Continued: a report generated by a model with database tools. The report concerns a stretch of 64,000 nt of DNA, taken from NCBI GenBank assembly GCA_049671145.1, contig JBATUM010000185.1:1828-65827 (forward strand). The letters are read 5' to 3'. This DNA is from Promethearchaeia archaeon (lineage in GTDB: Archaea; Asgardarchaeota; Lokiarchaeia; Sigyniarchaeales; SOKP01). The letters are not shown here.

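Follow-up and report, generated by a model that had tools for sequence, protein, structure and literature searches.

The window contains exactly three copies of the domain, CT1, CT2 and CT3, as counted by a six-frame scan of its entire length. CT1 and CT2 are related by BLASTP (E 2e-16), while the pairwise comparison of CT1 and CT3 is only marginal (E 0.002), and therefore a test profile was built from 38 family members, each at most 40% identical to any window copy, with the window copies left out. This independent profile scores CT1, CT2 and CT3 at 84.3, 90.0 and 55.6 bits, respectively (E 3e-22 to 3e-13 in a million-sequence space). The three-way similarity proposed by the sequence-only reading thus stands, and every motif string it quoted is found in the window ORFs. 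Its interval, 36641-36970, is indeed the 3′ end of the giant ORF, but the domain starts 32 residues further upstream, at 36545 ('TQFTKAKTIG'). The last column of its first motif, G-x-x-H-I-x3-(D/H), is misaligned; the final H of CT3 'GIIHIFAGH' is the second conserved histidine, which pairs with the GH of 'YGHMRDFA' and 'LGHLGDFA'. Relative to CT3, the stretch separating the two histidines is enlarged in CT1 and CT2 by an insertion of some 17-21 residues. A further conserved element, GH-x-x-(D/E/Q)-F, adds to the motifs already described.

Single-sequence scans of Pfam, PHROGs and NCBIfam, together with a word-indexed protein search, give essentially no matches for the window copies, and an exact-sequence look-up finds CT2 (MGB5911332.1) and I1, the putative immunity protein encoded downstream of CT1 (MGB5911330.1), both named 'hypothetical protein', in a Promethearchaeia archaeon MAG, on a contig of 66 kb. 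When a 4-sequence profile is run exhaustively with HMMER against 1.84 billion representatives, 54 proteins with E <= 1e-3 are returned, and their sequences and boundaries describe a single compact domain of about 105-140 residues with the consensus KF(t)..i.GIt....G.I.WLE.GN...GL.HI...(insert)...H..DF...G....I...I..ti.......G..Y.v...G....l.vv...NGfI.TA(Y/H/F)P. In 52 aligned members (CT1 domain numbering; denominators of 48-52 by position), the early histidine that had been called invariant is kept almost throughout (H49, 50/52), and the T/S-A-Y/H noted near the domain end is confirmed as T/S/N138, A/S139 and Y/H/F/W140 (each 52/52). The other conserved positions are G41 (48/48), G46 (47/49), I50 (46/52), H71 (51/52), D/E/Q74 (50/52), F75 (51/52), G134 (51/52) and P141 (47/52). 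The two histidines and the terminal strand are kept in all alleles, although their identity is 26-45%. In bacterial members, the domain occupies the extreme C-terminus of WXG100-type proteins (four members; P0008 confirmed by TIGR03930) and of an Rhs-core protein (P0017; TIGR03696 E 7e-18). An inert structural role is therefore unlikely, as both the residue conservation and the conflict-system architecture argue against it.

Among the relatives, P0009 (727 aa), P0029 (423 aa) and P0039 (264 aa) contain 2-5 tandem whole-domain copies with intact GLxHI...H and ITAYP motifs, which is unusual for a C-terminal warhead and brings to mind the polyvalent proteins with multiple PBECR domains described from Helicobacter prophages (PMC5512222). 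Many database entries of the family (P0001, P0002, P0010, P0024, P0035, P0042 and P0044) have their Met start exactly at or near the x-H-I motif; these entries are gene-caller truncations of start-less orphan cassettes, which helps to give the family its look of small, scattered hypothetical proteins.

The sole strong PDB match of a 52-sequence profile is 7M5F chain C, 'Toxin CdiA' (E 4.3e-23, end-to-end alignment), from the CdiA-CT/CdiI complex of Serratia marcescens BWH57 (CASP14 H1065), whose toxin domain has >900 homologues among antibacterial proteins (PMC8616854). The domain almost certainly belongs to this family. In 7M5F, residues H47, E51, H52 and R89 touch the immunity protein and are good nuclease active-site candidates (PMC8616854); counted along the aligned chain, H47 ('GLQH') and H52 ('EEH') correspond to CT1 H49 and H71, whereas the equivalents of E51 and R89 are not conserved across the wider family, and 7M5F itself has Gly in place of the last-strand T/S. 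An AlphaFold2 model of CT1 (142 residues, 52-sequence alignment, no templates) is confident (pLDDT 89.4, pTM 0.83) and predicts N-terminal beta-hairpins, two short helices around H49, the CT1/CT2 insertion as a low-confidence loop, a helix (70-79) beginning at H71, a second helix (84-97) and a C-terminal four-strand meander with S-A-Y-P as its last strand.

In Pfam, PF18809 (PBECR1) is matched by 8 of 56 family proteins at E <= 0.01 (best E 3.9e-6), but none of CT1, CT2 and CT3 reaches a gathering threshold. By Pfam's own rule, PBECR1 membership is rejected, with individually checked members at 13.8-23.4 bits against a 27.6-bit cut-off; the 7M5F fragment scores 19.1 bits. The checked members' matches are co-linear (profile positions ~9-101 of 104), and the BECR core is defined by an N-terminal helical segment and a meander of four strands, the fourth of which carries S/T (PMC3482391). 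Taken together, this makes the family look like a PBECR1 sister outside Pfam coverage; more loosely, the domain lies within the BECR/PBECR radiation and is not categorically new.

The earlier guess of a small RNase toxin of the Barnase-EndoU-ColicinE5/D-RelE type was a good one, now anchored to the 7M5F structure. If the argument from two histidines made for EndoU, Ntox35 and RNase A-like sites (PMC3482391) is extended to this family, the domain would be a metal-independent endoRNase with H49 and H71 as its catalytic pair, and RNase chemistry is the reading we favor, with some reserve. A toxin of the same fold with non-RNase chemistry is possible: the literature records no activity, and 7M5F lacks the colicin E5 catalytic residues (PMC8616854).

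Features of the probable toxin locus in the window
Feature	Position	Description
Giant ORF with CT1 at its end	101..36973 (+)	12,290 aa; 36641-36970 is its 3′ end
I1	37034..37504	156 aa; downstream of CT1
Acidic ORF	between I1 and CT2 frame	116 aa
CT2	ORF 38141..38494	frame in fact open from 37940
I2	38488..38985	overlaps CT2 end; I1 homologue, E 6e-20
Two ORFs	39359-41094 (+)	91 aa and Cys-rich 490 aa; between CT2 cassette and CT3 paralogue
Third I1/I2-type gene, C-terminal half	41204-41539 (+)	'...NVIQGIYINNYEIPIKWKDYDKFYSERSIAIKTNEGFFLLD...LYVGRFDLHAWYPLE*'
CT3	near end of ORF 41867..45658	1,263-aa ORF
LRR protein gene	after 1,263-aa ORF	279 aa

The locus follows the polymorphic-toxin blueprint. 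The CT2 frame begins right after a stop codon, and its start and the pre-toxin junction of the giant protein are homologous ('NFFRSS...' vs 'NFFRLSQLY...'). The third I-type gene looks like the relic of a lost cassette because it has neither an N-terminal half nor an upstream toxin. The first ~500 residues of the 1,263-aa ORF align to the giant protein from a point ~1,486 aa short of the C-terminus (E 3e-54); since this alignment begins mid-homology, the ORF is a 5′-truncated paralogue that carries CT3 after a different pre-toxin region. At 44100-44500 (+), upstream of CT3, the ORF has a possible S24/S26-type serine peptidase module ('GRSMFGKLKPG...DIIVFYRDG...VHRV'), and candidates also precede CT3-type toxins in L003 (1680-2777) and P0012. 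Pfam Peptidase_S24 stays below its 23.3-bit cut-off in relatives, at 21.5 and 18.2 bits, and goes undetected in the window copy; such a module could release the toxin. Directly after the LRR gene, 46726-47804 (+) holds genes of 196 and 163 aa with a 4 nt overlap and no Pfam matches, which could be another two-gene conflict module.

The pairing of the domain with a downstream partner gene recurs elsewhere. An I-type homologue directly follows a CT1/2-type domain in L002, a JGI metagenome locus (hhalign 98.6%, E 6e-16), in L004, a Promethearchaeota MAG that also has a homologue of the giant C-terminal region, and in L005, where an 872-aa carrier fragment ends in the domain. A second L005 cassette is a shortened orphan with the junction and first ~25 toxin residues, followed by a second I-type gene; in L003, the domain precedes a truncated I-type gene. 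Overall, six of nine I-type genes or remnants lie directly after the domain, one follows a toxin stub and two do neither, namely the window relic and L006. In L006 (1311-2501), the homologue directly follows a Tpt1/KptA RNA 2′-phosphotransferase gene (Pfam E 1.5e-43) with no toxin domain upstream, an adjacency that may be coincidental or may hint at an RNA-end-related function.

The CT3 arrangement is repeated in L001, an independent Promethearchaeota MAG, where an orphan CT3-like module precedes the gene for a 279-aa LRR protein that shares 46% identity with its window counterpart across the full length; Imm-LRR is a previously described class of polymorphic-toxin immunity protein (PMC3482391). 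Beside this LRR gene, at 7383-7499 (-), lies a fragment that shares 69% identity with residues 307-345 of the window 490-aa protein, which has no Pfam match, and that gene may therefore travel with these toxin islands. Pfam, NCBIfam, PHROGs and the PDB contain no match to the I-type family, and no TM segment is predicted in I1, I2 or the LRR protein. Toxin and immunity roles for the domain and its downstream partners are very probable; the domain would be toxic, with I1, I2 or the LRR protein neutralising it. The orphan pairs might instead be intracellular TA-like modules, as L002 sits in a TA island, but the frames of the orphans have no start of their own, and the ORF calls begin within the domain.

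We propose that orphan cassettes could replace the expressed tip by recombination. CT1 36651-36705 and the CT2 cassette at 38108-38162 share 83-87% nucleotide identity over the WLELGNQFxGxEHILYD segment, compared to ~45-65% elsewhere. This island could be an internal recombination site or could instead reflect selection on the active-site (first-histidine) motif.

Delivery is the weakest part of the proposed mechanism, in which the giant protein would be surface-exposed and its C-terminal piece delivered into neighbours. Laminin_G_3 (aa 1954-2117) is its sole Pfam match in the 8,290 residues scanned, on either side of the middle ~4,000 aa. Six TM segments of the protein span aa 637-875, and three hydrophobic stretches lie at ~10,689, ~11,214 and ~11,349, before the final ~920 aa. 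No known secretion system is evident near its gene. Three large genes in the same orientation lie further downstream, at 50893-61603 (+). Their products are a membrane protein of 1,274 aa, a HerA/DUF87-like ATPase of 648 aa and a protein of 1,599 aa whose N-terminus is highly acidic and rich in repeats.

Classical polymorphic toxins have been described as rare in archaea (PMC3482391). The window is AT-rich (GC 32%), and its other genes, including a Methyltrn_RNA_2 methyltransferase, a CDP-alcohol phosphatidyltransferase and the HerA-like ATPase, fit an archaeon. What is new is the Asgard host, though such archaeal loci may have been described earlier, a 12,290-aa carrier in which essentially no trafficking domain can be recognised, the distinct motif at the junction, and an undescribed ~155-aa immunity family adjoining LRR immunity for the sister allele. 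The locus opens a tractable question, that of toxin delivery in Asgard archaea.
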